From a virus (lineage: Duplodnaviria > Caudoviricetes): DNA of 56,665 nt. The translations under genes and the position numbers were made by a program. The stretch is taken from positions 1 through 56,665 of the IMG/VR virus record IMGVR_UViG_3300010370_000044, one strand, 5' to 3'. The number at the start of each line of letters is the position of its first letter. The stretch's first letter is position 1. Shown piece after piece: positions 1,743-56,086 of this stretch. The notes below the pieces were generated by a model. The model worked only from the letters and a program-made list of their open reading frames with translations, did not search any database and had not been told where the DNA came from.

Positions 1743-2320
1743 AGCGCGACTACGTATCCATAGTATCCGTAATACTGTACGCAGTATTCATCATGCTGGC
1801 GATATTAACATTTCTATCATGCAACTCAGTTAAGAGAGTGCTGAATGATCAGGAGAAGTTCGATCAGGTTGCCAAGGAGGTTATACGTCGCGGCTACTGT
1901 GTAAACGATACTATCATTGTAACCGAGGTTAAGGACTCAATTATATATAAGGACTCTATTACTGTTATTACGGAGAAGGTCCCGTGCAAAGACTTTGACA
2001 CCACCATTGGCAGAGCCCGTATTCGGGTCAGCTCGGGGGTGTTATTTTATACCTACAAAGACTCAATCGTCTATAGAACCAAAACCATAAAGGAGACGGT
2101 ACGTGACCGGTCTCTTGAGGGAATCCTTAAGGACGACATTACCAAACTACAAGACAGCTTAAAGCAGGCGCGGTTTGAATCTAAGGAATGCGCCGCAGAT
2201 CTAAAGGCAACCAAGCGTGAGGCAAGAAATGATAGGGTAAAATTGTGGCTTATCATAGTAGCACTGGTGACATTTGCATTTAGGAAACAGATTCTCGGAC
2301 TCGTGAAAACTTTTATATAG
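1739..2320 (+). CDS. Lipoprotein with C-terminal TM, probable unimolecular spanin
   Basis: Signal peptide with lipobox-like FLSC, coiled coil, C-terminal LWLIIVALVTFAF; directly after endolysin. Confidence 0.6.
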   Translation: MKRDYVSIVSVILYAVFIMLAILTFLSCNSVKRVLNDQEKFDQVAKEVIRRGYCVNDTIIVTEVKDSIIYKDSITVITEKVPCKDFDTTIGRARIRVSSGVLFYTYKDSIVYRTKTIKETVRDRSLEGILKDDITKLQDSLKQARFESKECAADLKATKREARNDRVKLWLIIVALVTFAFRKQILGLVKTFI

Positions 2321-2321
2321 T

Positions 2322-2600
2322 ATGGCTCTCTTTAAAGTAATGGCCGCAAAGGATGGGAAGCATGCTTGGAAGGCTGAGGGCACAAACCCTAAGACTGGCC
2401 GGGAGATTACTTTGAAGGGAGGCGAGGCGAAGCACCGTGGCAAGTGGGGTACCAAGGGCGGTAAGTCTGAGGGGCAGGTGAAGAGCTTCTTCGCACGTCA
2501 CGCAAAGAACGACAGCCCTGTTGCATTTATTAACGCCCTAAACTGGAAGAGAGGTAGCCAGATCGGGAAGACTGTAAACATACCCAATAGTAAGTTCTAA
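2322..2600 (+). CDS. Small basic phage protein
   Basis: K/G-rich 92 aa with KSFFARH motif. Confidence 0.6.
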   Translation: MALFKVMAAKDGKHAWKAEGTNPKTGREITLKGGEAKHRGKWGTKGGKSEGQVKSFFARHAKNDSPVAFINALNWKRGSQIGKTVNIPNSKF

Positions 2601-3292
2601 TGGACCTTAAGGTTATACACGATACAATCCTATACTTCCTGAACAAGGAGCAGAACGGTTTCGTTACGCACGAGGAGATCGATCTGGTTCTTGATAAGGC
2701 GCAGATGGTTCTGTTCAATCAGTACCACACAAACCCAAAGACACCGGCAAATCCAGCCATGATCAATTATGGGGAGTCTCAGAGGATTGACGATGCCTTG
2801 AGTGTATTTAAGGATAAATATACATTCGGTACAGTAGACACACCCGGTGGTGTGATAACACTCCCGGCAAACTACCAGCACCTGCTTGGCCTGTTCACCA
2901 CGGTATACAATGCAACTCTTCTGAGGAACGTATACTCTGGCGTGCAGGTACTTAACGAGGAGGAGCTTATCTCCCGCTTGGAGTCTCAGGTTATCCCTGT
3001 AACTCCTGATGATCCGATCGCGATCATGAACAAGCAGAACAAGATTCAGCTGTTCCCTGAGAGTCCGGCAACAGGTGGTGTATATTACCTGCGCCGTCCA
3101 GCGGTACCTGCCTTTGTGTACACACAATCAGGTCGTACGATCACGTATAACCAAGGCGGGTCTACCCAGCTCGAGTGGAGAGATATGGACGTCATGAACG
3201 TAATTGTAATCGCTCTATCATATTACGGTCTCAACATGAGCAGCGCTGACGTTGTTCAGTTTGCTCAGGTGAAGGAGGCACAAGGACAGTAA
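2600..3292 (+). CDS. Tail ring / head-tail adaptor protein (crAss-like tail tubular type)
   Basis: LNKEQNGFVT..EIDLVLDKAQ N-terminus and YLRRPAVP; first of three similar-sized genes before the muzzle gene. Confidence 0.6.
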   Translation: MDLKVIHDTILYFLNKEQNGFVTHEEIDLVLDKAQMVLFNQYHTNPKTPANPAMINYGESQRIDDALSVFKDKYTFGTVDTPGGVITLPANYQHLLGLFTTVYNATLLRNVYSGVQVLNEEELISRLESQVIPVTPDDPIAIMNKQNKIQLFPESPATGGVYYLRRPAVPAFVYTQSGRTITYNQGGSTQLEWRDMDVMNVIVIALSYYGLNMSSADVVQFAQVKEAQGQ

Positions 3293-3293
3293 C

Positions 3294-3917
3294 ATGGCCA
3301 CTACAAAATATAAAATAAGCGAACAGATCCAGCGCATGCTCAAGGGCAATCCCGTGATCAGTGCTCGCGTTCATCAGAACGACATCAAGCTATTGATAGA
3401 ACAAGTGGCCAATCAGTTGTTGAAGGCGGAGACTCTGTCAGTTAACATGGCCGATGGAGATAGTCTTCCCCCGAACTGCATGATCTATACGTACGATAAC
3501 GTGCCAGTTAGTACGTACAAGACGACCAAAAGTAAGGCCGTTCTCCCATCCATTCCAGTGAGCTTGCCTCGCAATATGGGTGTTCTGCATGTGTCAAAGA
3601 CGGATGCGATTGACGAGCCGTTCATCCCGATCCCTGCCAGCACTTACGGGATCATCAAGCCTCAGGCGCTTCTTGGCGATCTGTCTGGTTTGATCGGATA
3701 CGAGGTGATTGGTAAGGACATCATCTTCACTCAGAACCTCCCCGGACAGAGCGTGAATAATGTGTTCATCCGTTTGGTTGGAGTTGACATGAGTGCCATT
3801 ACAGACTACGAACTGATGCCGCTGTCTTCTGACATGGAGGCCCAGATCGTGCAAACAGTTTATAATATTTTGGTTCAGGCGCCTCCTGCTGACAAGGCGC
3901 TGGCCGCAAATGACTAA
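3294..3917 (+). CDS. Tail ring / structural protein
   Basis: Position and size in the tail module. Confidence 0.5.
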   Translation: MATTKYKISEQIQRMLKGNPVISARVHQNDIKLLIEQVANQLLKAETLSVNMADGDSLPPNCMIYTYDNVPVSTYKTTKSKAVLPSIPVSLPRNMGVLHVSKTDAIDEPFIPIPASTYGIIKPQALLGDLSGLIGYEVIGKDIIFTQNLPGQSVNNVFIRLVGVDMSAITDYELMPLSSDMEAQIVQTVYNILVQAPPADKALAAND

Positions 3918-3919
3918 TA

Positions 3920-4681
3920 ATGACGCTGACTACACTTGATAAGATCGTTCGTTCAGCCCTGTCAGATCGGGGGTATACCATGCATTGGTACATCCAATTC
4001 CTTAACTATGCTGTTAATGGATTGCGTGAACTGAACTTTGATGTTCTTCAGAATATCAAGAGTGTACGTCTGCCGGTTAACTCATACAAAGCAGCCACAC
4101 TTCCTATTGACTATGTTGACTATGTGCGTGTTGGGAATGAGATTGGTCAATATATACTGCCATGGGGAGAGAAGGAAGACTCTTTCAATCGTCTAAACAA
4201 GTTTGACTCACAAGGAAACAAGATCCCCTATGGCGACGTCGAAGCAACCAATGGTATACTACCTAATAACTGGGAGGGGTTCTGGTATACAAATTACATT
4301 AATGACAAAGGAGAACATCTTGGACGTATATTCAATAATCGTCCGGGCTATAGAGAGTCCTTCGTTATCCTTAGAGAGCGCAATGAAATACAACTAGATG
4401 TAAGCTACACTGGCACAGAGATCGTCATGGACTACATATCTGACGGCATGTTGCTTACTGCTAGCAATGCAATACATCCGTACGCCATCGAGACGATCAA
4501 GGCGTACATCTTCTGGAAGCACAAGGAGAATGGTCGTCAGTATAATCTTAGTGAGCGTCAGCTTGCAAAGGATGAGTTCTATAACCAGCTCCGTGTGTTG
4601 AAGGGACGAATGAATAACATGGATACACAGGAAATTACCCGTAGCCTTCGTTCTGGATATGGTCCTGTGATAAAGAACTAA
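3920..4681 (+). CDS. Tail ring / structural protein
   Basis: GLRELNFD, LPIDYVDYVRV and YISDG motifs typical of crAss-like/Flavobacteria podophage ring proteins. Confidence 0.55.
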   Translation: MTLTTLDKIVRSALSDRGYTMHWYIQFLNYAVNGLRELNFDVLQNIKSVRLPVNSYKAATLPIDYVDYVRVGNEIGQYILPWGEKEDSFNRLNKFDSQGNKIPYGDVEATNGILPNNWEGFWYTNYINDKGEHLGRIFNNRPGYRESFVILRERNEIQLDVSYTGTEIVMDYISDGMLLTASNAIHPYAIETIKAYIFWKHKENGRQYNLSERQLAKDEFYNQLRVLKGRMNNMDTQEITRSLRSGYGPVIKN

Positions 4682-4682: not shown

Positions 4683-7600
4683 ATGCCTGTAGTTAAAAAG
4701 ACATTTGTAGGCGGTATAAATCAGGATGACGCCGATGCACTGATTAGCCCTAAGGAGTACCTTGGGGCTCTCAATATTCGCTTTATCACAAGCGAGGAGG
4801 GAGATGTCGGTGATGTAACAAATATAGAGGGTACTGTAGAAAAGAACCAGACGAAGAACAGCTCTGGTACCACAGTATCTTGGTCACTGCCTGCTGGCAC
4901 TAACAGAACCATTGGCGCATTTGAGGATACGCCTAAGCGCAGATTGTTTTGGTTCAACTGGAACTCTAACGGCAATCACGCGATCTATTGCTATGACAAT
5001 GACGACGATATTATCTACACTGTATTCTATCAGTCAGGACTTAGTGATGTTCTGAACTTTCAGGAGGGAAGTTTCGTTCACAGTATATCAATGTCTGGCA
5101 ACATATTGTACTGGACTGATAACTACAACGAGCCTAAGCGAATCAACGTAGATGCTGCGATAAAAATGAACCATCCCACGTTCTCGACAACCGAGACTAA
5201 ATACGATGCGTTCAGCATAAAGAAAACAACAGGCGGATCTGGCTACGTGAATGGTACCTATACTAACGTACCAATCACTGGTGGTAGCGGATCTGGGGCA
5301 CTTGCAACAATGGTTGTTGTTGGAACTGTGGTAGACACTGTTACAATAACATATCACGGAACTGGCTATGCAGCTGGTGATACGCTAAGCGCATCCAACA
5401 CAAACCTAGGGGGAACAGGATCTGGACTTAATATAACAGTCACAAAGATATTTGACAAGTCTGTGGTAAGCCTAATCCGACCTCAGCCTATGCTGCCTCT
5501 TACTGTAGCAAAGGCAATCGACGGATCTTTCACAAACAATTTCATAAGCTCAGAGGCTTTCCAGTTTGCGTATAGATTCGTATATAGAGACAATGAGGTT
5601 AGCACATTCTCTCCAATGTCAAAACTAATTGACTATAATACAGAGGCTGAGATTGCGTCAGGGTACAACTCTGTTGCAATAACCGTTCAGTCTGGTCAAT
5701 GGATTGAGCAGGACGTCAAGAAGATTGAGTTTGCTGCCAAGTATCTTACTGGCGGTAAAATGTTCATTTTCAAAACACTAGAGACTGGATTCAACGCACA
5801 CAACAATGGTACCAATATTGCATTCAATTTTTATAATGATATTGTTGGTGTTGCCGTTGATGACGCAAGCTCTGTAAAACCATTTGATAGCGTACCGTTA
5901 AAGTCCAAGACACTTGAAATAGCCAAGAACAGATTGTTTCTTGGAAATAATTTAGAGGGTTATGATACTCCTACTACCACATCATTGTCGGTTGGTTCAA
6001 GTATTGTAAGTACTACGTCTGTGGTCGGTAAGTGGTATGTGTTTGTATATAATGCTGCAGGAGGTCCTTACACAAAGTATCTTTTGTTTGTTGACAACAT
6101 TACTGGTAACAATGGTTACTACGAAAAGACTACTCCATTTACGCCTCCGCCATATCCAACCACAGTAAATATAGCAGACTATACTTGGAAGGGTTACACG
6201 TTAAATGAGTTAGCAAACTCTTACGGGATACTGCAAAGCGCAATTATTGTACTTCAGTATACAACTAATAATGCAACCGTATCTGGCGCCACATTGGCTG
6301 GTCTTTCTGGTAAGGTTGTTTTTAAAAGTGAATCTTCATACAGGGGCGGTATTGTATTCTTTGATTATGCTGGGCGCAAGTCTGGTGTAGTTACTTCAGA
6401 TTCTATCAAGGCCAATATCCCTGACAGGACATATGCTGGAGATCAGTTTACTGAATTGGTTAGCTGGAGTCTTAGCAATACAAATGCTCTTAGTGAGATC
6501 CCGAGCTGGGCAACTCACTACTCTATCGTCAGAAGCAAGGCGCTACGCACAAACTTCTTTGCACAGCAGATAGCTGACTCTGTAAAATATATTACAAAGG
6601 ATTCAACAGGAGCTTATCAGACACCTACCACAACATATGCTGCCGATGCTTTTGGTCTGGCAATTCAGGTTAAGAGTTTATCAAGCATTGGTTTTGGATA
6701 CACATATCAGGAGGGTGACATAGTTAAATTGTATCTTTCGACAGGAGTTAATTATAGGCTTCGGGTAAAGGATACATACTCCGACTTTATTATTACAGAG
6801 CTTGCAAACGTAGGATCAGGACCTACTGCCATATACGAGGTATATTCTCCGTTTATACAGTCTGATACAATATACTACTACGAGGTTGGTGAAACATACA
6901 AGGTTGTCAATCCGGGTACTGGTAGCCGACAATACGGAACGGTGAGTGGGTTCTTTACTGGAGACGTTTCTTTGTTTGAGAGAACGGTTGGCGCTAATAC
7001 TAAGTGGACTGAGAACATGAGTCCAAACGATAAGTATTGGAGAAGTTGGTATACAGACATTGGACGTGTAAACATTACATTATCCGATGGTCAGACGCAA
7101 AAATCAGTTAGTGTATCATTCTCAAATACTGTAATCCCGGGAACGAAGGTTAATGGATTAAGCACATTTGATACGCTTGATCAAACAAACCTCCCAACAG
7201 AGCTGGCTGCGATAAGCCGATTAGTGTTTACTTCAAAGTCAATTACAGATGGAACAGTCATGTTGGCTGTTGGTGAGCAGGAGACCGCGAGCCTATACCT
7301 AGGCGAAACTCAGCTACTAGATAATACCGGGTCATCGTTCTTGGCCAAGAGTACTGGTGTTATTGGTAACGTGAATGTATTGAAAGGCTCATACGGAACA
7401 TTGCATCCAGAGAGTGCATTTGAGTGGCAGGGAGCTGTTACGTATTTTGACTCTAATAAGGGTTGCTGGGTTCGATATGACCTGAACGGATTGACTCCAA
7501 TATCTGACAATAAAATGTCAAAGTACTTCCGCAAGGTTGGTGTTGACATTCTCAATTATTTCAAGAGCGCCACAAGTTATAATAATCTAAACCCTAACTT

Positions 7601-10497: not shown

Positions 10498-10507
10498 AAC
10501 AACAAGC

Positions 10508-13500: not shown

Positions 13501-16500
13501 TGGACAGAACCCAGAAGCCACACCACTTTCCAAAGATGCAAACCGTAAGCTAAACGAAAAGGCTCAGCAGTGGTTGAGTTCGCGTGGACTTACAGCTATA
13601 CCAATTTTTGGTAAGTACGGCAACTCTGAGCGCTCATTCATGGTCCCTAATATGACCAAGCAGCAGGCGGTAGAATTTGCTAAAGAATTCCAGCAGGAGT
13701 CAGTGGCTCATAGCTCTGGCCTTGTATATCAGGACGGTTCATTTAATCCAAGAACAGAGGGTGTAGATATCAGCCCCAGATTTGATCAGGGTGGTGACTT
13801 CTTCTCTACCATTAATGTCGGTGGCAAGAAGGTTGACTTCTCCATTAACTACGACTTCGATACTAAGGTAGAGCCAAAGAAAGCTTTGTACGAAAGCCTG
13901 CGTAAAAGAATGTTCGGTGATGTTGGTCAGAAGGTTGCCAGTGCACAGAAAGCGCTTGAGAAAACAGGTGTTGTAATCAACATGATTCAGGACCCTGCAG
14001 AGTTTGATCGAACAGTAGCCCAGTTCGGGGGACAGAAAGGCATTGAGGGTGTATTCGTTTCCGATCAGGGACAGATATTTATCAACCAGTCTAAACTCGA
14101 TCAGGGTATTGCCGATGGCCGGGTTATCTGGCACGAGTCCTCACACCCAGTGGTTAATATTATTAGAAACACGAACCGCCAGCTTTTTGATAAGGTTGTG
14201 TCCGGTCTTAAGCAGGCATCTAAGAACAACAAAGGTGTAATGGATGCTTTGACTTGGGCTGAAACAAACTACGCTCAGGATGGTCAGGGCGTTGTTGATG
14301 ACGAGGCTGTTGTTGAAACAATAGCTGGAATAGCAGAAGGCACTATTGATATACAGGCGCTTCCTACTGGGGTAAAGCAATCTATTATAGAGTTTATTAA
14401 TCGTATTGCTAGAGCGCTTGGCTTTGATCAGGTGCTTGATGATACAGATATCGCGGCTTTTAAGAAGCTCGCCAGTGATGTAGCCAATGCACTAAGTACT
14501 GGTCAAGACATTTCAGAGATAGTAGGTGCAGAGAATGTAAAAGAGTACCTTAATACTGTTGAGGCACCCGGAATTGTAACTGGAGGCGAGCTCAATAAGG
14601 CAACACAGTCTAGGGTTACTGCAGAACCAGCTGTAAATGTATATGCATCAAAAGATGTTTCTGCACTTCCACAGAAAAGTTTAACTGAAATATACGAGCA
14701 GTTCGGTGGTAAAGCTGTTGTGATAAATTCAGACCCTACACGCGTTGGTACTCTTACCCTACCATCAGGCAAAACCATATTCATGTATGGTGGACCTGCA
14801 TACTTGTCTGTAAAAGATAACGTGGATGGTAATGTAGGATTCGCTACCACGCAGATTAGTAAGGTTAACACTTGGATGAACTATGTGAAGGAGGTGTTTG
14901 GTGATCAGCCCGGTGTTACACTTGTGGCTTCACAGGCGCCAACATCAATACTTAGTAATTCATACGCCCTACGCTATGTGATGGATGGTATATCACAGTT
15001 GCCGAAGTCTGTGCTCAAGTCATCTGATTTCAAGAACGAGTTCTTTGGAAAGGATCTAGTGTTACTGAAGGATGCTTTTGGGGAGAAGGCTTACAATGAA
15101 TTTGTAAACAAGTATAAGAAAGCTGACCTGTCTAACCCCGAGGTGATTGATGCAATGATCTCCGAGATGGCATACAAGGTTGGAGATGATAATAAGCCGG
15201 CAAGTTTTAAGGCGCGTGGTGCATTTGTTAGTAACCTGCTTGGAGGCTTAGCCGAGAAGGCGTCTCTTAAGGGTGTTGAGGGTGATAAGGGTTACGTGTC
15301 TAAGAAGCCAAACAAGTTTATTGCAAAGCAAATGATGGATCGTCTTGGCATTAATGCCGAGAAGGTGATGAGAGAGATTGGAGAGCCTTCGCTTGTTGAG
15401 CAGTACATGAACGAAGGCAACTGGGGATTTGCAGTAGCTGGGTTCGAGACAGATCCGAATATAACTGTCGAGTCTGTACAGAACGGTGGGGTTAAGCACC
15501 CACTGTTTAACGCCAAGTTCCCCGGTAAGAACCCATTCATTCTGGATGGCGCATATGACCTTGACCAGATGTTTACTCCTGTAGAAATGACTGGTCCCTC
15601 TGGCATGCCATATACAAAGACTGCCTCACAGATGCTGGCTGGTAGTATGTATGTAAAGGGTCAGCCTATCAGCGGTCAGGGATCGTTTGAATATAAGAAT
15701 GTCAGCCCTTCTGGTAGAAGAATACAGTCATCTAAAGGTAATCGTGTGACACGTGCAATGGAAAATGTGTCCAACCAAATGACTGAGGATGGTCAGGGAA
15801 ACTACGTATTCTACCACTATTCTAACAAAGATATTAAGAAGATCGATCCATCCAAGTTTGGGCGTAATCTAGCCACTGGTCGTGATGAGCGTCCGGGTGT
15901 TGGGCTGTCCATGTACTATACACGTCCCGATATTATGGAGGCAAATGTGCCTTCAGAATTTGGATATGTCGTGCGCATCCCAAAGAATAAGGTGTATCCA
16001 TTCAATGACGATCCTCTTAATCTTCTTCCTGAAGCTGAGAAGCAATTTAAAAAGCAATTCCCAGATCAGGCATTTGACTTTAATAAGCAGGTAGGTTTTG
16101 TGACCAAGGTGGCTGCAGATCGGGGGTATCCTATGACCGTTGCTGAATGGAATGTCGGTAGGAAGAAAGCTCTCAGAGCTCAGACAACCGAATCAATGAA
16201 GCCTGAGAAGTTTAAGGAAAATGTGTTTGAGGATGGCTACTTGCAGGAGAAGATTAACCCTAAGCTTGACTTTGTTCCGAACGCTAAGAAGCGTGCACAG
16301 ATGTCAAAGGGCAACCGCGACAATGAGATCCGTCAGTTTATTCGTGAGAATATCGGGCAGTATAGTCCTGATGAAATCTCTCAGGCAATCCAAGATGAGA
16401 TTGGCATTTCAAAGGCCGACGCTGATGCAATGGTTGCTGCCGAGTCTAAAGGTCAGGCGCCATTGGCTGAAGAGATTAAAACATTCCAAGAAGGACAGGG

Positions 16501-19754: not shown

Positions 19755-19777
19755 AGGGCCCCCAGTTCGGGGGCTCT
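19755..19777 (+). terminator. GC-rich hairpin AGGGCCCCC-AGTTC-GGGGGCTCT (possible terminator)
   Basis: Inverted repeat just after a stop codon; A-run on the left would make a U-tail on the - strand; contains the CAGTTCGGGGG motif. Confidence 0.45.
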
Positions 19778-24489: not shown

Positions 24490-24772
24490 ACTTGTATAAT
24501 CTTTTAAGTCTTATCAATTCAACTATCGTATCCCATTCCATTGTGGGGTGGAAGACAGTTTTATAGAACTTGTTTGGGTGAGTCGGGCTGACCATAAGCA
24601 TCTCAATGCCGGGTGCCACATCGTCTTCTGTTGCCAGCTCGGGGGTACAGTCTTCATTGACCAACCTCCACTCCCCCTTGTATGTACCCCATACCAGCTC
24701 ATAAATTTCCGGCTTCGATGAGCTTACCGTAGTCGACCGGCTGGTGGATGAACTTCGTTTTGTCCGTGCCAT
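24419..24772 (-). CDS. Hypothetical protein (start uncertain)
   Basis: Only ORF filling the gap between helicase and resolvase; overlaps both. Confidence 0.45.
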   Translation of the reverse strand: MARTKRSSSTSRSTTVSSSKPEIYELVWGTYKGEWRLVNEDCTPELATEDDVAPGIEMLMVSPTHPNKFYKTVFHPTMEWDTIVELIRLKRLYKYGNKRTISESEGTQLRASDPGLF

Positions 24773-26417
24773 CGTTTACTTTTTGGGTTGAGAAATACCT
24801 TGACGTGCAGACATCGTATCGGAAGTAGTCGATAGACTCCTGACCAGAGAAGCGGAAGCGGATCTTCCAGAAGTGGATCTCGGTCTGGTTGGTCTCCCGG
24901 TTACGGTACACCGTGATGCCTACGTCGGGGGCGTTGTAGTAGTGGGAGCTGTCGCCTACGTCGTATCCGGTTGGGACTTCGTACACAGCCTGCTTTACCT
25001 TGGTGAGTTTCTTGGGGTGGGCTACCAGCCAGATGTGGATGCCGTGCTCGCGGGCGAATGCCCTGAGGTCCCGCATCATGTTGCCGATCTGGTTGTGCCT
25101 GTTCTCCCCAGACCCGGCGATCTGCCGCTCCACCGTGCTCATGTTATCGATCACCAGACCCCTGATCCCGTGGCGCTTGACCATCTCCTCGGCCTTGGCC
25201 ATGATGGCCTCCACCGTAGAGTCGTTCTCAGACAGCTTGTAGTACTTAAAATGCTCGTTAAGGAACGGGGTGGCTTCCTCTACCTCATCTCTGGAGATAC
25301 GGGCGCAATTGGGCGCAGAAAAGAAACTACGGCCTGTCCTGATGGATAGCAGATCTGTCATGGCGAAGGTGGCGCTGGCCTCCTCAGCCGAGTATACTAG
25401 GTATGACCATCCGTGCCGGTCCGCCAGTCTGACCAGAATGTTCTTGAGCCATGTGGTCTTACCGTGTCCGGGGATACCGGTGATCAGGGTGACCATACCG
25501 GGATGCCATTGGAAGTGCTCATCCAGATTCTCAAACCCTGTGTCGTAGCCCTGCGGATACCCCTGATCCCACAGCTGGGTCAGTTCGCTGGCCGTTACCA
25601 CGTCTATCCCGTCCACCGGGAATGGCTCTGCGTTGTGGTAGCACTCGACCAGCTTGGCCGGACCGTGCTTAAGCATGGTGTCGTTGGCGTCCTTCTCTGG
25701 TAGGTTGATGATCCAGCAGTTGGACTTGCCCAGCCTTCGGGCCAGCTCGTTTCTCAGGGCAATACCCGGTTCGTCGTTGTCTGTGCACAGGTAGATGCGC
25801 TTGCCTTCCAAGTACGGGAGCATATCCTCTAGCCATTCCAGCTTTTGGTTCCCCTTACTGGCTCCGTTCGGTACGCTGACTGCGGTCTTTACTCCAGACT
25901 CATAAAACGCAAGAGCATCGATCTCCCCTTCCGTAATAACCAACTCAGAGTCTGAATTATCGCTTGCAACGTCAATGCCGTAAAGGCTAAGCATAGCGCC
26001 AGACACAAGCTTAAACCTCTTCTGAGAATCGCGGTACTTGATGTTAACCAATTGTCCATTTAGAAAGTAATTAAAGTTTACGCATCGGGTTTCTTTGTCG
26101 CCCATGAACTCGACAGACTCTGTTATCTTATAGCGCAGTAGGGTTTGATTCGATATCCCCCGAGCTGCAAACCAGTCTATCACTGGCTGAGATAAAGTCT
26201 TGAGTTCACTGACTACAGGTGTGTACTCCTTCTTAGTCTTGACGGTGCCGGTCCAGCCGCAGTTGTGGCAGTTCCATATACCCTCCTCGACATTCACAGA
26301 CAGGCACGGGTCTGCCTTGTGCTTGCGTGTTGCGGAGCACTTGGGGCAGGTGGTCTTCACGTCTCCGTTAGAACCGGTCCTGATGTTTATGCCTAGGCGT
26401 TGGAGTTTTTGTAGCAT
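24699..26417 (-). CDS. Bifunctional primase-helicase (T7 gp4 / Twinkle-like)
   Basis: CPKC..CHNC Zn finger, TOPRIM ITEGEIDALA and DNDEPG, Walker A GIPGHGKT, LVAHPKK. Confidence 0.92.
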   Translation of the reverse strand: MLQKLQRLGINIRTGSNGDVKTTCPKCSATRKHKADPCLSVNVEEGIWNCHNCGWTGTVKTKKEYTPVVSELKTLSQPVIDWFAARGISNQTLLRYKITESVEFMGDKETRCVNFNYFLNGQLVNIKYRDSQKRFKLVSGAMLSLYGIDVASDNSDSELVITEGEIDALAFYESGVKTAVSVPNGASKGNQKLEWLEDMLPYLEGKRIYLCTDNDEPGIALRNELARRLGKSNCWIINLPEKDANDTMLKHGPAKLVECYHNAEPFPVDGIDVVTASELTQLWDQGYPQGYDTGFENLDEHFQWHPGMVTLITGIPGHGKTTWLKNILVRLADRHGWSYLVYSAEEASATFAMTDLLSIRTGRSFFSAPNCARISRDEVEEATPFLNEHFKYYKLSENDSTVEAIMAKAEEMVKRHGIRGLVIDNMSTVERQIAGSGENRHNQIGNMMRDLRAFAREHGIHIWLVAHPKKLTKVKQAVYEVPTGYDVGDSSHYYNAPDVGITVYRNRETNQTEIHFWKIRFRFSGQESIDYFRYDVCTSRYFSTQKVNDGTDKTKFIHQPVDYGKLIEAGNL

Positions 26418-27778: not shown

Positions 27779-28780
27779 TTAAGGTTTATTAAATCGAACT
27801 TGAAATTGTTTGCGCCATGTGATCTTACCGTCGGGTAGGTGCATGATGGAGGCGTTGTTCTTTTCCATTACCTGCTTCAGTCGGTTGCCGTAGAGAAGCT
27901 TGTGATCTTCAACTTTCTTGAGCATTGCATTGTACCGGGTGTATTGAAGCGCCCAGTCTGCCAGCTCGGGGGTGGACTGCATCTCGTTCTCGTTCTCGCG
28001 GTCCTTATGTTTCTGTGAGATGAAAGCATTGAAGTCCTCAGAAGAGTCGGCGTCCGGCTCGTACTTACTTGCGATATCCAGAAGCTCGTCCTTGTCATCC
28101 GAACCAGACACCTTCATATCATCCAGAGCTGACATCACTCGGTCGTTGAATGTCTGCGCCTCCTTCAGTATGGATGACTGCAGTTCCCAATCCGCATCGA
28201 TGGTCTCCACGATCATGCTTCGTCCGTCTACACGCATGCACAGCTCAGCGTACTCGAGCTCGCACACAAGCATGTAGTGTTGAACCTGTGCGATGTACTG
28301 AGGTGGAATGCCGCCGACATATGAGTCAGCAGTCATGCCGTTGATCTTCTTGATCTCGAGGATACCCTGCTTGCGCTTGCGGACAGGATGCTTGGTGATT
28401 ACTCCGTCCACGTTGGCGAATAGTACCGGATACTTAGGGTTCTCGATGATCGCCTTGATCTTCTTGAATCGGCGGACCTTGTTCTTGGCAATCACGTTCT
28501 TTACAAACCCATCTTCGGTACCATCCCAGTACTGCCAGCACTCGGCGATGTTATCCTCTTGGAGTTTGCCCATGGCCATCTCCATGTTCATCATGGTGGG
28601 GAGGGCGCCGACACCAACGGATTGATAGTAGAGAGAGATGGGGCTCTTCCACTTGTTCCATCCGAGTAGTGTACCGGCGTCTGATCCTCCGACCATGCCT
28701 CGAGAAACAAAAGACTGGCGAAGTTTCTGCCAGTCCTGTTCTGAGAGTTTGGCTGTTGGTGTAAGATTAAGGTTTTGCAT
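27779..28780 (-). CDS. YqaJ-like (lambda exonuclease family) recombination nuclease
   Basis: VGGSDAG, ANVDG, ILEIKK, YIAQVQHYM. Confidence 0.9.
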   Translation of the reverse strand: MQNLNLTPTAKLSEQDWQKLRQSFVSRGMVGGSDAGTLLGWNKWKSPISLYYQSVGVGALPTMMNMEMAMGKLQEDNIAECWQYWDGTEDGFVKNVIAKNKVRRFKKIKAIIENPKYPVLFANVDGVITKHPVRKRKQGILEIKKINGMTADSYVGGIPPQYIAQVQHYMLVCELEYAELCMRVDGRSMIVETIDADWELQSSILKEAQTFNDRVMSALDDMKVSGSDDKDELLDIASKYEPDADSSEDFNAFISQKHKDRENENEMQSTPELADWALQYTRYNAMLKKVEDHKLLYGNRLKQVMEKNNASIMHLPDGKITWRKQFQVRFNKP

Positions 28781-31691: not shown

Positions 31692-31811
31692 GTGTTTAGT
31701 TTTAGAACTCTAAAATAGCGCCAGTCAGTAACCGCTTTTTAAGTAATCAACACAGGTTGGTAAGTAGTACCTTTGATGTGCCAGTTCGGGGGAAAACAAA
31801 GGCGGATCTTG

Positions 31812-33640: not shown

Positions 33641-33674
33641 AAAAAAGAAGCCCCCGTGATCCAAGTTCGGGGGC
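33641..33674 (-). terminator. Intrinsic terminator
   Basis: GCCCCCG...CGGGGGC stem followed by TTCTTTTTT on the - strand. Confidence 0.7.
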
Positions 33675-34188: not shown

Positions 34189-34684
34189 GGTTAAGGGTTT
34201 ACGTTAACGATGTAGTTCTTGTAGCCGGACGATAGATTTAGTTCCGCCCCAGTCTGCAATGACGCATTCATCTTTGTCCTTGTATCCAAGGAATAAGAAT
34301 GGTTTGCCATTGAATGTGACGTTCTGACCACACTTGAATCCCCAATATTTGTGGGGGTGGATCAGTCGGATGTCTTCTCTTTCTATTCGCATATTGATAA
34401 GGTTTATACAATACAAGGTCTATATCCCTTGGACTGGGATAGTCTGCCCCTTTGCTTGCAGTTCGGGGGTTCATAGCCCAATCATGCATCCCCATATCCA
34501 AGGGAGAGCGGTCTTCTTGCGAAGTCCAAGGTCTCGGGTTGTCACCTTGAAGACATTGCCCGAACTTTCGTACCGCTCCTATCATCTCCCGAACGGCGGA
34601 CTTACCATTCGGTTAAGCATGAAGGACAATTACCTTTCATTTGGCGTGCCACTGCGCTTGCCTCGGATGAAACCTGTTAAGACC

Positions 34685-35529: not shown

Positions 35530-35544
35530 GGGTGTATAGTTTAG

Positions 35545-35585
35545 GAACTGGTTGTCATCGAAGACCACGGCATATCCGCCAGTTC
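35545..35585 (-). ncRNA. tRNA-mimic element E7 (degenerate)
   Basis: GAACTGG/CCAGTTC stem, CGG-ATATG-CCG, GTC-TTCGAT-GAC. Confidence 0.6.
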
Positions 35586-35592
35586 GGGGGCG

Positions 35593-36390: not shown

Positions 36391-36409
36391 AGGTTTGAGG
36401 TTTGATGAG

Positions 36410-36452
36410 GAACTGCCGAAGGAGTCGAACCTTCGTGAGACCATCGCAGTTC
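36410..36452 (-). ncRNA. tRNA-mimic element E4
   Basis: GAACTGC/GCAGTTC, linker ATGGTCTCAC, GAAGG-TTCGACT-CCTTC. Confidence 0.78.
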
Positions 36453-36529
36453 GGGGGCTTACATGAGGTTATCCGCAAGACACGATAAGAGCATGAGGAT
36501 AATCATGGCGATGATTTGGAATGCACCTT

Positions 36530-37369: not shown

Positions 37370-37384
37370 TGTGTTAGGTTTAAG

Positions 37385-37432
37385 GAACTGCCTTGGGTCA
37401 CGAACCCAGTGCCATCGGGATGGTGGCAGTTC
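37385..37432 (-). ncRNA. tRNA-mimic element E3
   Basis: GAACTGCC/GGCAGTTC, CCAT-CCCG-ATGG, TGGG-TTCGTGA-CCCA. Confidence 0.75.
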
Positions 37433-37439
37433 GGGGGTG

Positions 37440-37841: not shown

Positions 37842-37855
37842 GGTAATAGGTTTAG

Positions 37856-37901
37856 GAACTGCGGTCGGTTTCGCTCCGACTTCGGTCACACCTCGCAGTT
37901 C
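37856..37901 (-). ncRNA. tRNA-mimic element E2
   Basis: GAACTGCG/CGCAGTTC, GGT-GTG-ACC, GTCGG-AGCGAAA-CCGAC. Confidence 0.78.
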
Positions 37902-37910
37902 GGGGGGGGG

Positions 37911-38364: not shown

Positions 38365-38383
38365 AGGTCTAGGTTTTGATAAG

Positions 38384-38426
38384 GAACTGGGAGCGGAATC
38401 GAACCGCTCTACGACCATCCCAGTTC
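38384..38426 (-). ncRNA. tRNA-mimic element E1
   Basis: GAACTGGG/CCCAGTTC, linker ATGGTCGTAG, AGCGG-TTCGATT-CCGCT. Confidence 0.8.
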
Positions 38427-38635
38427 GGGGGTGCATTCAACTCAGAGACACTTGCTTACAAAAGAGTCTCCATTGCATATCACGGAAATACTCCTTAGGG
38501 TCTCGCCCTAACTCACGTAGGGCTTTCTCCATACGCTTGTGGGTAGATAACTGGGTTTGTCCGCGACGGATAATTGTGCCGTCTGCCTTGGCGGAGAAGA
38601 TGGGGGACTTGATACGCTTACGCATGGGATTAGGT

Positions 38636-38956: not shown

Positions 38957-38968
38957 GTGATTAGGTTT

Positions 38969-39022: not shown

Positions 39023-39029
39023 TTATCCA

Positions 39030-39480: not shown

Positions 39481-39604
39481 CACTAGACCCCGACTTTTTT
39501 TAAAAAACAGGGGTATGCACTTAGAAACGGATACGTGTCTGTATTTAAATCTTAGGGATTTGTGGCAGATGTGCCTTATGAAAAGGGGGCAGTTCGGGGG
39601 ATTA

Positions 39605-39925: not shown

Positions 39926-40844
39926 TCGAGTGAAATAGGGAGGGGGGTTGTTGAGATGTTATGCACACACACAACTCGCCCCCATATTGGATAAAAAAAC
40001 GGGCCGATGTTTACTTCGCGATGGGTTTCCTCCTCGCACAATATGACACGGGTTTGCTTTCCCTTGTGTCAGTCTTCCGAGTGCAATGCGTTGGGCCATA
40101 TGGGTTTGCAAAATTGCGTACACTAATTGGGTGTTATTTGATGGGCCGAAAATCGATTCCGAAACCGCCGATTTGACCCCCACTCGGTACGCGATTCGCG
40201 GTTCGCAAACGCGCGCGCGCCCATACATTTCTACGCATTACCCCCACCCCAAACCCACATACAGCGCCCATTTCTTTACTCTTATCGCTTACTTCTAGCA
40301 CTGGCAGGAATCCACCGCTTTTTGCATGCCCCTGTGGGCCTATTACAGCCCAGTGGCAGGCATTTCTTAAAGAGGCCGGACCGTAGACACGGCCCAGCGT
40401 TATTCCCTAAGAAAGTCCAAATATAACTACTGCCCTATCTATTTTATTGTGTTACTCACAGTTGTTGGTAAGTGGCGCTTTATTATGTGGTGGTTTGGTT
40501 ATTAATTTTGGCTTCACCCTTTTCGGGAATCCGGCTCGGGGGTGTTCGTTGTTTGAGAACAGCGATCAGCGCAAGAGTGGGACAGCAGACGATGGCGCGG
40601 CCCAGATGCAAAGGGAGGAAGGGTATGTCTGCAGGCTGGCACCCAGTCTTAGAGTAGCTCCCAGACCGATCGGCGGTGTGTCCAGATCGGGACGGTTGAT
40701 GCGGAGGCCGACGGCGCTCAAGCATAAACTGAAGCAGATCGGGGGACATAGTCATGTCTCTCGGTCTCGCGAAGACCTCAAACGCTAAGCATATTATACC
40801 CTATTTTAGAGTGTAGTTATTGTTGATCAGGATAATTTGCGGGC

Positions 40845-41217: not shown

Positions 41218-41388
41218 ATGCCGCTAAAAAAAGGAAAGGGTAAGGAAGGTATCAAGAAGGCCATCTCTGCTAACATCCGCGAGTTGATGGCCGACAACAA
41301 GAAGAAGGGCAAGGAGAAGGGTGCTGGTGGCAAGGCTCGCCCCAAGGCTCAGATCTTGGCAATTGCTATCAGAGCTGCCAAGGGATGA
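41218..41388 (+). CDS. Small basic MPLKKG-type protein (not in ORF track, 56 aa)
   Basis: MPLKKGKGKEGIKKAISANIRELM...QILAIAIRAAKG; stop overlaps HNH start. Confidence 0.7.
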   Translation: MPLKKGKGKEGIKKAISANIRELMADNKKKGKEKGAGGKARPKAQILAIAIRAAKG

Positions 41389-41633
41389 GAAAGCACACCA
41401 AGGTCTACATAGACCACTTCGGTTGGTCTGACTTCTACCCGTGTGAGGTTTGTGGTGCTAGGGCGGTAGACATCCATCACATCCACCCAAGAGGTATGGG
41501 TGGTTCCAAGAAGAAGGACGTCATAGAAAACCTGATGGCTTTGTGCAGATCCTGCCATCTGGAGTACGGTGACAAGAAGCAGTTTGTAGAGTTTTTGGAG
41601 GAGCACCACAGAAAGGCTGTGGAAAAGTCATAG
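41385..41633 (+). CDS. HNH endonuclease (packaging-associated)
   Basis: CEVC..DIHHI..GG....ENLMALCRSCH. Confidence 0.88.
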   Translation: MRKHTKVYIDHFGWSDFYPCEVCGARAVDIHHIHPRGMGGSKKKDVIENLMALCRSCHLEYGDKKQFVEFLEEHHRKAVEKS

Positions 41634-42634: not shown

Positions 42635-43132
42635 GTGCTAGACTGCGAAACACCTTTGGGAAGACAGTTCATTGAAGAGCAGTACCGCGTTCAGCGAAAG
42701 CTTCAGGAGCGCGGTTATATTGTATTCAACAGTGCTGGCAAGTCTAATCACTCTGATGTGTTTTTGTGTAAGGAGGAGGATGGATGGCCTACGCTAGTTG
42801 GTATTGCGGAGATTAAATGCCGCAAGTCTGCTGCAGGTCAGCAGATCAACCGGCAGTACTTGATTGACAACGGTGGTTATTTGATCACGTACAGTAAGTT
42901 AAAGTATGGCGCCATGGTAAGTGGAATACACATGGTACCCTTTTTTGTAATAGTGAGTCTGATCGATGAGGGCGTTATTCTGGTATGGCAGATCACAAAC
43001 AGGACTGGTTCTTTTTTAGAGGAGATCATGCACAGGATAACGACTACCAGAAAGACGGTGAATGGTGGAGAGATCCAGAGGACAAATGCCTTTCTGCAGA
43101 TGGACTCTAAATTCTTGACTGTAATTGAGTAG
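42635..43132 (+). CDS. PD-(D/E)XK-like nuclease
   Basis: SDVF...IAEIKCR. Confidence 0.5.
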   Translation: MLDCETPLGRQFIEEQYRVQRKLQERGYIVFNSAGKSNHSDVFLCKEEDGWPTLVGIAEIKCRKSAAGQQINRQYLIDNGGYLITYSKLKYGAMVSGIHMVPFFVIVSLIDEGVILVWQITNRTGSFLEEIMHRITTTRKTVNGGEIQRTNAFLQMDSKFLTVIE

Positions 43133-43514
43133 AGGAATTGCTACTGAATTGTTGTTTGACCATCTGGCTATGGAGCGCGGTTTGGTGGTGTCTCGTCCTC
43201 TTCTAGATGTTAGGTATGATCGGATTGTTGACAGTGGATCTTGTCTATTCAAGGTTCAGATAAAGGAAACGAGTCGCATGGATAATGGAGGATGGTGGGT
43301 TCAGACTAGTGGCAATAAGAGGCGGATGTATGGTAGCGATATTGATGTAATGGCTGTTTATATAAAACCCGAGAAGGCTTGGTTTTTCTTCCCCGGTGAA
43401 GAGATCACCGGTGCTGCAATGAAGCTGACGCTCGGCGGAAAATACATGAACTACTTAAACAACTGGGAGGTTTTTAATGCGGAAGTCAAAAAAGATAAGG
43501 ATCAAGCTATATGA
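43125..43514 (+). CDS. PD-(D/E)XK endonuclease (PDDEXK_5-like)
   Basis: G..TELLF...VSRP....YDRIVD....KVQIK. Confidence 0.7.
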   Translation: MSRGIATELLFDHLAMERGLVVSRPLLDVRYDRIVDSGSCLFKVQIKETSRMDNGGWWVQTSGNKRRMYGSDIDVMAVYIKPEKAWFFFPGEEITGAAMKLTLGGKYMNYLNNWEVFNAEVKKDKDQAI

Positions 43515-53917: not shown

Positions 53918-54751
53918 ATGAAAAAAACAGAATTGTACAACCAGCTGCCAGACAAGCTGGTTAAATCCACCCTACTTAAGCCGGGTGAGCAGGTAATGTA
54001 CAGACTGCACAACATGCAGCGAAACCCAATGGAGCCAACAAAGCTCTCAATTCCTGCGGCAAAAAACGTCCCTCCTACTGATACAATTTGGGACGAATCA
54101 TCTCAAACCTATATCGATATCGCTGCTGTGCGGAACGTAAGTCCAACTGGCGATCACACATTCCACGAAATCTTTTTTTACGGCAATCAGGCCGGACACA
54201 TGATCTTGGTTGGTGGTCGTGCTCTGGATCAGGAGATTCACAGCTATCTTTCCTTATGCAACTACAATGCTTCTAACCCTAACCGTGATAATACTAAGGA
54301 GGCTATTTTCGAAAAGGTTGACGAAGAGGCAAAAGCAGAAAAGGAAAGCCGTACACGTAACATCCGTCGTGAGGCTCTGAACGCCGCTGCAGACTTGAGC
54401 CCAGAAGAGGTGAAAGACTATGCCGCATCTCTCGGAAAGGATGACACAAAACCTGTATCTGTATTGAGAAATGAGCTTGAGGAGATGGCGGATAAAACCC
54501 CTGAAGACTTCATGAAGCTTATCAACAACAAACAGGCAGTGATGAAGGCAACCATTAACCGTGCCATTAAGAAGGGCGCTATTGTCTTCAATCAGGAGCA
54601 GTCACGTTTTGAGTGGCCCAATCAGGAGGCCATCCTGACAGTGGCTCGTTCCACTGGATCTGACGCCGTAGAAGAGCTGGTTAGCTTCTGCATCAGCTCG
54701 GCAAAAGGCGAAAAGGTCTATCAGACTATTTCAAGTAAGGCCAAAAAGTGA
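53918..54751 (+). CDS. Conserved post-MCP protein (crAss-like head accessory)
   Basis: 277 aa; FEKVDEE.KA...A.K.PEDF pattern and position. Confidence 0.55.
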   Translation: MKKTELYNQLPDKLVKSTLLKPGEQVMYRLHNMQRNPMEPTKLSIPAAKNVPPTDTIWDESSQTYIDIAAVRNVSPTGDHTFHEIFFYGNQAGHMILVGGRALDQEIHSYLSLCNYNASNPNRDNTKEAIFEKVDEEAKAEKESRTRNIRREALNAAADLSPEEVKDYAASLGKDDTKPVSVLRNELEEMADKTPEDFMKLINNKQAVMKATINRAIKKGAIVFNQEQSRFEWPNQEAILTVARSTGSDAVEELVSFCISSAKGEKVYQTISSKAKK

Positions 54752-54803
54752 TGCCTTAGTCCACAACTGGACTGAGGTTCATCTCGTGTTTGGTTGTTTG
54801 GTA

Positions 54804-54834
54804 AGGCCCCTGCTATTCCTAGCGGGGGCTTTTT
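54804..54834 (+). terminator. Intrinsic terminator
   Basis: GGCCCCTGCTA-TTCC-TAGCGGGGGCT-TTTT. Confidence 0.75.
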
Positions 54835-54886
54835 CATAGGGTGTTTTTCTGGGTAATGATATAGTTGGTACTGAATTTTGCATACA

Positions 54887-56086
54887 ATGCCTACAATTCC
54901 TAACATATCTTTTTCGGTTAAGTTTAACCTTACTGGTACCCCCACTCTTGCGTTAACCGACACCACTACTACACCACCTGCAGGTCTGGTTGGTATTTTT
55001 GAAATCACTCAGCCAGATGGATATGTCCGCGTTGGGAATATTGCATCCCCCGATATCGCTGCCGCCGGGGGTACCTTTAACTATACCCTGACTCTGGACA
55101 GCTCTGGTGGCGTTCAGCGGGGTCAATATACGATCAAGTACACTGCTAATGCGCCGAGCTATTTGTCAACTGACTTTACTCGTACGTTCCAGTTCAACTA
55201 TCAACCTGTTACGCTTAACCTGCGTGAGGAGTTTGACGTGTTTACTCCACAGCTGAGGTACTATGATGACACTGTATATTCTATTGGCGGCTGGAGCAAT
55301 GGTGCTGTAACTAGGGCTTGGTCTGGAACGAGCACTCCGACAGGAACGAAGACCAGCTCGGGGGTATTCTTAGACATGATTCATACTGGAAACTATTATG
55401 ACGCCAACTATACGATCAGTCTATCGTCATCGCTATTATATACAAACACTACTTATGCTTGGTTGACCGTTCAGGAGACAGTTTCTAGGTCTGTGAATAC
55501 GTACGCTGAGACTCCTCCGACAATTGTACAGATTGTTAGTCTGATAGTATCACTTAAGAATACTCTTGAAAGCAAGATCGATACTGTCAACGAGTTTAAC
55601 CAAACTCGTCAGGACTTTGAATACGCTCAGTCTCTTTTTGAGCACATCATACAGCGAATTCAAGTAAACAATCTTTCAACTATATATAGGGATTTAAAGG
55701 ATCTGATTGCAATACTTCACAACTATCAGATACCAACATATGTCCCTCTTAATGTGCCAATACTACCATACAATCTTGGTTCAATTATTACCGGAGCAGT
55801 TTGGGGTAGTATCACAGGGACAATTACATCTCAGACTGACTTAGTAAACTACGTTGCAAGCCAGATCGGGGGCCAGACGTACAAGACTAATGTTGGAGAC
55901 GGAACAAACACATCATACACTGTAACCCACAACCTAAACTCAGAAGATCTATTTGTAGAAATTTGGGACAACGGAACAAAGGATCAGGTATTCACAGACG
56001 TAGTTTACGCTACTGTCAATACAATAACAGTAACATTTGCAACTCCTCCTACTTCTGCACAATATAAAGTAATAGTCAAGAAATGA
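54887..56086 (+). CDS. Structural protein (tail/fibre-associated)
   Basis: T/S-rich beta protein; WGSITGTITSQTDL and VTHNLN...VTF..PP motifs; promoter TCA-N40-TTTGC at 54834-54881. Confidence 0.65.
   Translation: MPTIPNISFSVKFNLTGTPTLALTDTTTTPPAGLVGIFEITQPDGYVRVGNIASPDIAAAGGTFNYTLTLDSSGGVQRGQYTIKYTANAPSYLSTDFTRTFQFNYQPVTLNLREEFDVFTPQLRYYDDTVYSIGGWSNGAVTRAWSGTSTPTGTKTSSGVFLDMIHTGNYYDANYTISLSSSLLYTNTTYAWLTVQETVSRSVNTYAETPPTIVQIVSLIVSLKNTLESKIDTVNEFNQTRQDFEYAQSLFEHIIQRIQVNNLSTIYRDLKDLIAILHNYQIPTYVPLNVPILPYNLGSIITGAVWGSITGTITSQTDLVNYVASQIGGQTYKTNVGDGTNTSYTVTHNLNSEDLFVEIWDNGTKDQVFTDVVYATVNTITVTFATPPTSAQYKVIVKK

Follow-up and report, generated by a model that had tools for sequence, protein, structure and literature searches.

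The DNA analysed here, referred to as the window, is the whole of viral record IMGVR_UViG_3300010370_000044 (56,665 bp; classed as linear; CheckV completeness estimate 83%; 45.8% guanine plus cytosine [GC]), a tailed phage genome in which a short asymmetric word of 11 bp, CAGNTCGGGGG, recurs throughout. Its genes form three transcription blocks. The rightward (+) block at 1-20.8 kb contains virion genes, including those for a crAss-muzzle-like protein and an internal-virion-type open reading frame (ORF) of 2,848 amino acids (aa). The leftward (-) block at 20.9-40.7 kb encodes a deoxynucleoside monophosphate kinase, a primase-helicase, a replication-initiator-like protein, a YqaJ exonuclease, a Rad52/Erf annealase, and a tyrosine integrase, after which come ~30 small early ORFs; a second + block at 40.8-56.7 kb encodes an HNH endonuclease, a GroES-like protein, a PD-(D/E)XK endonuclease, two glycosyltransferases, and the terminase, portal, and capsid genes. 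The closest isolated phages infect Flavobacterium, Cellulophaga, Tenacibaculum, and Riemerella, with protein identities of about 28-35%, and all 20 sequencing runs containing window sequence are freshwater or aquatic metagenomes. A Shine-Dalgarno (SD)-like tetramer precedes just 8 of 79 window genes and the leaders are A-rich, which we take to fit a Bacteroidota host.

The word is present in 20 exact copies, 18 on the + strand and two on the - strand (3468 and 26157), where 100 dinucleotide-preserving shuffles of the window give 0.09 on average and two at the most. Allowing up to one mismatch brings the total to 32 against 2.24 expected, the 12 additional copies being divided 10 to two between the + and - strands. 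Among 7- to 9-mers in the window, none approaches the words derived from the motif in over-representation. Copies occur in all three frame offsets of + genes and - strand ORFs as well as in intergenic DNA, some small-ORF calls in the early region being uncertain, and about half (10/20) fall within 31.7-40.7 kb. A preliminary description of this DNA, made by reading the sequence, had listed the 20 copies with their strands and five one-mismatch copies (17396, 33663, 35184, 40532, and 45000, all among the 12 found), put the chance expectation well below one copy per strand, placed copies in + genes, - genes, and intergenic DNA, and named 31.7-40.7 kb as the densest stretch; on each of these points it was accurate.

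About one third of the copies in this phage and its relatives lie at the foot of tRNA-like hairpins between early genes; with the five hairpin copies set aside, 15 exact copies remain in the window. Codon usage was controlled in the 48 genes of at least 100 aa by 500 synonymous-codon shuffles in which each protein and each gene's codon counts were held fixed. The 11-mer occurs 11 times in these genes, compared with 0.25 +/- 0.49 (maximum 3) after shuffling, and its 9-mer core 18 times, compared with 0.92 (maximum 4). The enrichment survives both controls, so neither the RNA elements nor codon or dipeptide usage is its source, and the results support selection of the word at the level of nucleic acid, independent of reading frame and codon usage.

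The core was defined from 549 TCGGGG sites in 13 genomes oriented on the terminase gene. Position -2 is G in 86% of the sites and a fifth G follows in 81%, and the leading CA is weaker (C at -4 in 51%, A at -3 in 58%); the informative positions therefore give G-N-T-C-G-G-G-G-G, also written GNTCGGGGG, with N mostly T or C. Common tolerated variants have G for A at the second position or GGGAG for GGGGG, and the core occurs about once per 2 kb of the window. The variable base differs by region, with T in 61 of 71 early copies and a mixture in structural-block copies (C 43, T 29, A 14, G 7). We call the G-rich strand of the word its G-form and the complement its C-form. A role as a primase start site, using the CTG at the 3′ end of the C-form, was considered and rejected, as those bases are the least conserved (51-58%). 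Searching the literature text with substrings of the word gave no description of it as a motif among the matches listed; the match to GTTCGGGGG (PMC2175346) is a synthetic I-MsoI oligonucleotide with artificial G flanks.

Exact 11-mers are found in 23 of 30 related viral records, in which a reversed-pattern control scores 0-1, and the core supplies the top 8-mers in all 10 relatives analysed de novo, extending to related genomes the over-representation proposed for this one. The seven motif-free records (G020 and G025-G030) have only structural genes in common with the window; the motif is found together with the replication/recombination module, the HNH nuclease, and the PDDEXK_5 nuclease. 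Clade members recovered through the hairpin pattern carry the word at GC contents as different as 34% (G441) and 52% (G449). In orthologous segments, forward sites keep the motif in 59/198, 137/347, 16/27, and 2/3 pairs by rising identity bin, retention at reverse sites is similar, and the motif columns are barely more conserved than their flanks (~0.74 versus ~0.70 identity). It is thus the density of the motif and not its position that is maintained, and single sites turn over. The word also serves as a handy in-silico marker for this freshwater phage group. A role of the sites as recombination boundaries was rejected, since homology-block ends across the clade are not enriched there (13/588 within 10 nt of a site; shifted controls 0-14, mean 5.3). 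In one strain, X3, homology changes at 35569-35577, beside the element at 35580.

Once genomes are oriented on the terminase gene, the forward orientation is dominant in every one, with forward:reverse 11-mer counts in 13 genomes of 72:10 in + gene blocks and 56:18 in - gene blocks. Reverse-strand copies make up 28 of these 156, where we estimate ~0.05 per strand per genome by chance, and the minority orientation is far above chance everywhere. A further count, divided by module, covers 14 genomes; G017 and G432 are left out for want of a recognisable marker gene, and G447 and G449 are not among the 14. Structural/middle genes stand at 61:14, with a forward/reverse ratio for the exact 10-mer of 3.03 over a two-mismatch background of 1.74; the early small-gene region at 62:3 (30 in detected hairpins), with ratios of 17.75 and 0.97; and the replication/recombination module at 8:16, with ratios of 1.00 and 0.57. 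In the long genes (structural plus replication), the G-form is on the sense strand in 77 of 99 copies.

GC and AT skews track the coding strand (structural +0.10, replication -0.06, early about 0), so we see no replichore-like asymmetry in the phage and rejected replication-type strand asymmetry as a source of the bias. The sense-strand preference in long genes is largely compositional, with a modest residual forward excess of ~1.7-fold that is not visible with the strict 11-mer in the replication module. The 18:2 bias of the window is a composite of sense preference in + genes, one-way early elements, and a few replication-gene copies, and not one polar track. The polarity seen in the preliminary description therefore stands as a count, both in the window and as forward dominance in every relative, but not as a uniform property of the genome, as the replication module runs 8:16.

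The early copies belong to a recurrent structure. Nearly every early intergenic junction has one motif copy, and the layout on the early-sense strand is a stop codon (often TAA plus 1-2 nt), CCCCC, GAACTGn, one or more inner hairpins, nCAGT(T/C)C, C, an A/C-rich leader of about 15-20 nt, and the ATG of the next gene. A complementary hexamer lies upstream at 37 of 180 CAGNTCGGGG sites in 13 genomes, compared with one in the downstream control, and several early copies that appeared partnerless are the same element with a GGCAGTCC 3′ arm. A pattern search yielded 62 distinct matches, ~55 of which we judged genuine elements, and 28 belonging to the two commonest size classes were aligned for covariation. 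Twelve pairs are predicted. The six basal pairs, GAACUG/CAGUUC, are invariant in all 28; the other six show compensatory double changes, the seventh pair being CG in 15, GC in six, AU in six, and UG in one, and each of the five inner-stem pairs being exchanged in this way in 1-14 sequences and broken in no more than one. The loops are UUCGAnU or AGCGAUA, and single-sequence folds agree with the aligned structure. The aligned elements thus have the form of a tRNA-like minihelix, with a 7-bp closing stem around a 5-bp stem and 7-nt loop, supported by covariation.

Five such elements lie on the - strand of the window, each with a motif copy as leader and 5′ arm. These are an intercistronic hairpin at 35538..35590 (copy 35580-35590, the CCCCC leader plus 5′ arm); a minihelix at 36403..36457 with a 7-bp acceptor-like stem and a T-arm with UUCGACU loop (copy 36447-36457); a tRNA-like element with two inner hairpins at 37378..37437 (copy 37427-37437; fold z = -3.3); a minihelix of the AGCGAAA loop class at 37849..37906 (copy 37896-37906); and a tRNA-like minihelix with a UUCGAUU loop at 38377..38431 (copy 38421-38431). 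They had been described beforehand as five tRNA mimics. The hairpins and the part that the word plays in them are real, but they are not called as tRNAs: ARAGORN predicts no tRNA gene in the window, and the Rfam tRNA model has no match at E<=1 within 19.0-41.5 kb.

Genuine tRNA genes are present in the same region of relatives, and five that we inspected are without the CCCCC-GAACTG foot. The relatives' tRNA genes (L197:6179-6257, L201:3477-3569 and 8736-8807, L173:19268-19354, L205:709-781, L296:12482-12573, and L300:12475-12548 and 18234-18304) are for Trp, Gly, Leu, Ala, Met, and Thr, and among them is one whose CUA anticodon could allow amber codons to be read. The operon of the early elements has, in the same sense, a match to the type III hammerhead ribozyme at 38967-39024 (-) (44.3 bits, E 7e-7; below the Rfam gathering score of 48.5). 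Strain X3 is without 331 nt (38638-38968) adjoining this match, and the hammerhead may bound a gene cassette. Metatranscriptome contigs match only 36.5-39.4 kb of the 20 kb compared, and contigs cannot show transcription. We rejected a promoter role for the element, because the stop codon of the preceding gene makes up most of the A/T block ahead of the C-run and sigma-70-like matches are at the shuffled expectation (31 versus 31.0). From their layout and structure we infer that the early elements act as RNA punctuation in a polycistronic early transcript. Given their resemblance to tRNA in shape, an RNase P-type enzyme may cut them at the C5/G junction; a sequence-specific reader may act on them as well, as their basal helix stays invariant while other pairs covary.

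The remaining copies in the window are spread over all three blocks. In the first + block, CAGCTCGGGGG at 2029..2039 (+) is inside gene 1739-2320 with the G-form on the sense strand, CAGTTCGGGGG at 3468..3478 (-) is inside + gene 3294-3917, CAGATCGGGGG at 3963..3973 (+) is inside + gene 3920-4681, and those at 14021..14031 and 16116..16126 (both +) are inside the 2848-aa ORF. This ORF, at 10487-19033 (+), matches an internal-virion-protein PHROG and includes a DUF3293 segment. Muzzle domains of the crAss-phage type occur in a 1,270-aa protein at 4683-8495 (+), and the pair suggests that the tail and ejection apparatus of this freshwater lineage are those of a crAss-like podovirus. In the replication-module region are the copies at 24635..24645 (+), in the small - ORF 24523-24702; at 26157..26167 (-), inside the primase-helicase gene 24699-26417 with the G-form on the sense strand; and at 27962..27972 (+), inside the YqaJ-type exonuclease gene 27779-28780 (-). 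Farther along are copies at 31782..31792 (+), immediately upstream of the integrase gene in the early sense; at 34459..34469 (+), in early ORF 34268-34585 (-); at 39590..39600 (+), without a hairpin partner and 4 nt past the stop of a weak winged helix-turn-helix (wHTH) ORF, 39605-39925 (-), that stands at the start of the early block; and at 40735..40745 (+), a CAGATCGGGGG copy at the promoter-proximal end of the - block. The last two, at 55354..55364 and 55862..55872 (both +), are inside + gene 54878-56086.

The two terminator-like hairpins reported earlier are also real, both on the - strand, so that reuse of the motif in RNA elements extends from covarying hairpins to terminators. One, GCCCCCGAACTGGGGGC with a T-rich tail at 19758..19774, includes the copy at 19763-19773; the other, GCCCCCG...CGGGGGC with a U-run at 33650..33674, is built on the one-mismatch copy at 33663-33673. 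Both use a single copy of the word, its C-run pairing with a nearby G-run, unlike the inverted word pairs of DNA uptake sequences (DUS/USS), which are words of about 10-12 nt found throughout a host genome at ~1 per kb in both orientations. A third terminator-like hairpin, AGCCCCC...GGGGGCT with a T-run at 34694-34713 (-), stands on a bare TCGGGGG core copy, and G5/C5 runs have repeatedly been taken into terminators on the early-sense strand.

The preliminary description took the word for a polar DNA signal, such as a host Chi-like site, a translocase-orienting site akin to FtsK-orienting polar sequences (KOPS), or a site for a nucleoid or partition protein. KOPS are G-rich octamers spread over the whole host chromosome. 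In 401 evenly drawn Bacteroidota genomes, the 11-mer reaches a maximum of 73 copies in 5.5 Mb (G366; control 10), and in that genome the sites alternate in strand along contigs of 2.7 Mb and 1.7 Mb. Wherever the raw density of the 9-mer core is highest, the reversed control is high too; the best core/control ratio is ~4 (G228, 219 versus 54, about one per 15 kb), and contig-level one-sidedness there is ~70/100 versus ~64 by chance (a hand count of 100 of the 219 places), a weak skew. None of the sampled genomes shows comparable enrichment or replichore-like polarity of the word, KOPS-type switching of orientation at origin and terminus, or host-wide enrichment of the DUS/USS type. Unlike Chi-rich phages, this one does have a Rec module, a YqaJ/RecE-like exonuclease at 27779-28780 and a Rad52/Erf-like annealase at 28767-29549, the two being present in 12/12 and 11/12 motif-bearing genomes, respectively; nor does the word keep a single orientation genome-wide. 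A host Chi or KOPS origin is not supported by these comparisons, in which the host genomes represent one phylum.

A nearly identical word recurs in an unrelated, apparently cyanobacterial provirus, G443 (loci L287-L290). It was found by the element pattern search, which selects for the word, and coincidence is possible. G443 is of siphovirus type, with a tape-measure protein and a T4-type terminase, and has a ComM-like gene and an IS605 TnpB at its edges; phmmer detects no protein in common with the window at E<0.01. It contains 55 GCGATCGC palindromes per strand, compared with 0-1 copies in the clade, which we take to be the cyanobacterial HIP1 sequence. Its next most over-represented word is AGTTCGGGGGG, with 18 copies split 9:9 between strands, ~0.4 expected, and unconserved flanks; 14 of the 18 are inside ORFs, in either sense.

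The tyrosine integrase gene (30393-31691, -) may serve either integration or dimer resolution. An integrase-alignment scan of metagenome contigs gave 45 loci, 22 of them at least 6 kb long (L324-L358), and in all 22 the integrase lies among homologues of window phage genes, with no integrated copy of the phage. Where both flanks are present, early genes are on one side of the integrase and recombination genes on the other, and in at least three loci (L339, L341, and L344) a C-form motif copy lies ~250 nt into the integrase gene at the same position. There are no prophage relatives among the sampled genomes: a six-frame terminase search of the 401 Bacteroidota genomes matched only the seed metagenome-assembled genome, and a terminase scan of genome contigs gave three distant matches at 30-32% identity. 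A scan of metagenome contigs with a single integrase gave no matches.

Two further observations concern genome structure. At 22668-23334 of the window (small ORFs 22632-22877 and 22890-23141), summed contig depth is 5-50 times that of the flanks in three DNA runs, with many alternative joints and loose ends, resembling a hypervariable cassette or one common to many genomes. A 52-kb contig, G447 (loci L284-L286), has a first part of 39 kb at ~32% GC with zero motif copies, encoding a DNA ligase, a PD-(D/E)XK nuclease, and sugar enzymes, and a last part of 12.5 kb at ~42% GC that is homologous to the replication/early module of the window and carries all of its motif copies. We rejected it as a host-prophage junction, the low-GC part not being clearly host; that part may be from another phage, and G447 either a recombinant larger phage or a chimeric assembly.

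We propose, with a probability of about 0.4, that the word is a lineage-specific, positively selected recognition word for a sequence-specific factor, existing in two populations, one in RNA elements and one in duplex DNA. The proposal joins the observed enrichment, frame independence, clade conservation, site turnover, RNA-type covariation, and lack of comparable enrichment in sampled hosts; cleavage of the elements, the existence of a reader, and its identity are what we infer. In the first population, the C-form CCCCC-GAACUG on the early-sense (-) strand provides a single-stranded leader and the 5′ strand of a minihelix composed of the 6-bp invariant basal helix, the covarying seventh pair, and a covarying T-arm-like stem-loop. 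The minihelix stands directly after the stop of a small gene and ~15-20 nt before the next ATG, and the early transcript may be cut at the C5/G junction by an RNase P-type or a dedicated endoribonuclease. The second population is the word in coding DNA, in all frames and both orientations, with the G-form favoured on the sense strand partly for compositional reasons. These copies may be duplex-DNA sites for a sequence-specific protein that binds and possibly nicks them, and this protein would be co-inherited with the early/replication module of the clade.

Several points weigh against this proposal. No reader was found: phylogenetic profiling does not discriminate, since the motif and the replication/early module as a whole go together. 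Of the small nucleases, the one conserved best (24145-24489) resembles a Holliday-junction resolvase in its E...D...QxK pattern and PHROG label, and searches with it, alone and as an alignment, return clade members only and no PDB sequence match. The 82-aa HNH endonuclease (41385..41633, +), present in 12 motif-bearing genomes and in G441, G448, and G432, and the 129-aa PD-(D/E)XK endonuclease of the PDDEXK_5 family (43125..43514, +), conserved in 12 motif-bearing genomes and weakly matching PDB 2OST (E = 0.012), are candidate readers by co-occurrence only. An orientation-neutral duplex site leaves unexplained the ~1.7-fold forward excess seen with the 10-mer after correction for composition in both long-gene regions, and cleavage of the early elements is a prediction from their shape. 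The compared genomes are related, and counts across them are not independent events. The conclusion that this is not a host signal comes from a sample of one phylum, and the terminase and integrase scans did not reveal the host. The echo of the word in G443 also weakens the case for a reader private to the clade.

Other explanations must accommodate the same data. A host Chi-like site, read by an AddAB/RecBCD-type helicase-nuclease and accumulated to protect or recombine phage DNA ends, is unlikely, although its anatomy fits well: a G-rich top k-mer, biased 18:2, in any frame, at about one per 3 kb, and clustered regionally, with the early cluster (62:3), the densest and the most uniform in orientation, terminal in the packaged DNA should packaging begin near the terminase genes. 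However, known Chi sites have 5-8 bases and this word specifies 9-10, it is identical in phages of 34-52% GC, the replication module shows no bias or a reversed one, and the G443 copies have no preferred strand. The Chi sequence of Bacteroides AddAB was not known in 2010 (PMC2887965), but the 401 sampled Bacteroidota genomes are without comparable enrichment, the best cases being of mixed orientation (G366) or at most ~4-fold over control with weak skew (G228). The phage also has its own exonuclease and annealase, whereas Chi-rich phages are without Rec modules (PMC12315714). We are similarly doubtful that every copy in packaged DNA is nicked on a single strand by a phage enzyme, as in phages T5, tf, and phiKMV. 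Density, length, and clade specificity are as in tf, sampled hosts are not enriched, and the conserved HNH and PDDEXK_5 nucleases are candidates for the enzyme; but the known sets are confined to a single strand, and here 2/20 copies in the window and 28/156 in 13 genomes are on the other strand, above chance, and the replication module has 8:16. Very unlikely is a broadly conserved bacterial factor that reads the word in unrelated phages of different host phyla: it would explain why the word ranks second in G443 with no shared protein detected, but G443 is one contig from a search selecting for the word, the 401 Bacteroidota genomes are not enriched, and we know of no universal factor with this specificity.

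A purely RNA-level role, in which C-form RNA from the early region pairs with replication and late G-form messages or an RNase targets them, has the appeal that one rule fits three regions (C-form 62:3 in early genes; G-form sense 61:14 in structural and 16:8 in replication genes). The early elements are clearly structured RNA, and the match of metatranscriptome contigs to 36.5-39.4 kb is in keeping with it, a weak point given what contigs can show. We nevertheless find it improbable, as the variable base is mismatched between early and structural copies (T in 61/71 versus C 43, T 29, A 14, G 7), about a fifth to a third of coding copies run in the opposite sense, far more than chance would give, composition accounts for much of the sense bias, and the GAACUG part of the elements is sequestered in a helix. 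Dispersed operators or stoperator-like sites of a repressor or global DNA-binding regulator in a temperate phage would account for the integrase, for ~20-40 asymmetric, clade-specific 11-bp sites per genome that sampled hosts do not share, for an orientation correlated with transcription in long genes (G-form sense 77/99), and for a copy at nearly every early intergenic junction, with the weak wHTH ORF at the start of the early block as a possible regulator. This too is improbable, because most copies are inside coding sequence and not at gene boundaries, the early region (62:3) is oriented opposite to the long genes (77:22), and neither an integrated copy (22 loci of at least 6 kb, of 45) nor a prophage relative in the sampled genomes was seen. 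Finally, we speculate on a two-level 'self' code, the least probable idea considered here, in which C-rich ends or leaders cut from early RNA would pair with the G-form copies (77/99) on replication and late sense strands as a multi-target antisense timer, and the duplex form may also mark phage DNA for a protein; recurrence in the apparently cyanobacterial provirus would then point to a reader or principle common to different phage lineages.

Few phage genomes have short words that are both dispersed and under strong selection, and the understood cases, Chi, nick sites, and stoperators, reveal how phages handle host nucleases, packaging, and silencing. In the proposed recognition of this word by a sequence-specific factor, finding the reader would uncover a DNA transaction of a new sequence-specific kind in Bacteroidota-type phages or, alternatively, a new way of processing RNA; the early operon with word-footed elements also holds a hammerhead-like ribozyme, and the hosts of this lineage probably use SD-independent translation. 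The stoperators of mycobacteriophage L5 (gp71) and the C1 operators of P1 comprise dozens of asymmetric 13-17-bp sites dispersed in a temperate phage, lineage-specific, and with orientation tied to transcription, but those sites are mainly intergenic or promoter-proximal, whereas here they are mostly intragenic and the early region has the opposite orientation. Mitochondrial tRNA punctuation and the promoter-early stem-loop cassettes of T4-type phages are likewise repeated structured elements; as in those systems, structured repeats occur here at nearly every small early-gene junction, with tRNA-like acceptor and T-arm features. Unlike them, the elements are without D and anticodon arms and are not tRNAs by ARAGORN or Rfam, and their basal helix and C5 leader are identical to a word dispersed in coding DNA.

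The Chi-rich phages, E. coli LLS and P1 and Pseudomonas MD8 (Zheng et al. 2025), are characteristically without a Rec module, and LLS has 23 Chi sites oriented 20:3 (PMC12315714). Like these, the present phage has a short G-rich top k-mer at ~1 per 2-3 kb, in any frame, with a ~7:1 bias and regional clustering; unlike them, where the word is the host Chi, it has a longer word that sampled hosts do not enrich, Rec genes of its own, and one module without bias or with the reverse bias. Pseudomonas phage tf, whose 46-kb genome has two convergent transcription units, carries an asymmetric 9-bp consensus 14 times, always on the same strand; the sites are conserved in relatives and proven to be nicked (PMC3517423). 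The nick sites of T5, tf/LUZ24-like, and phiKMV-like phages resemble the word described here in having an asymmetric consensus of at least 9 bp in four to at least 14 copies, independent of transcription, conserved in the lineage, and phage-specified (PMC3517423). They differ in being limited to one strand and in occupying similar positions among LUZ24-group phages, whereas here, in sites recognised from sequence, both strands are enriched and the sites turn over. The word therefore fits none of Chi, nick sites, or stoperators cleanly, departing from each in at least one defining feature, and what it adds to the other dispersed, selected, asymmetric words of phages is that it doubles as the foot of tRNA-like RNA elements.

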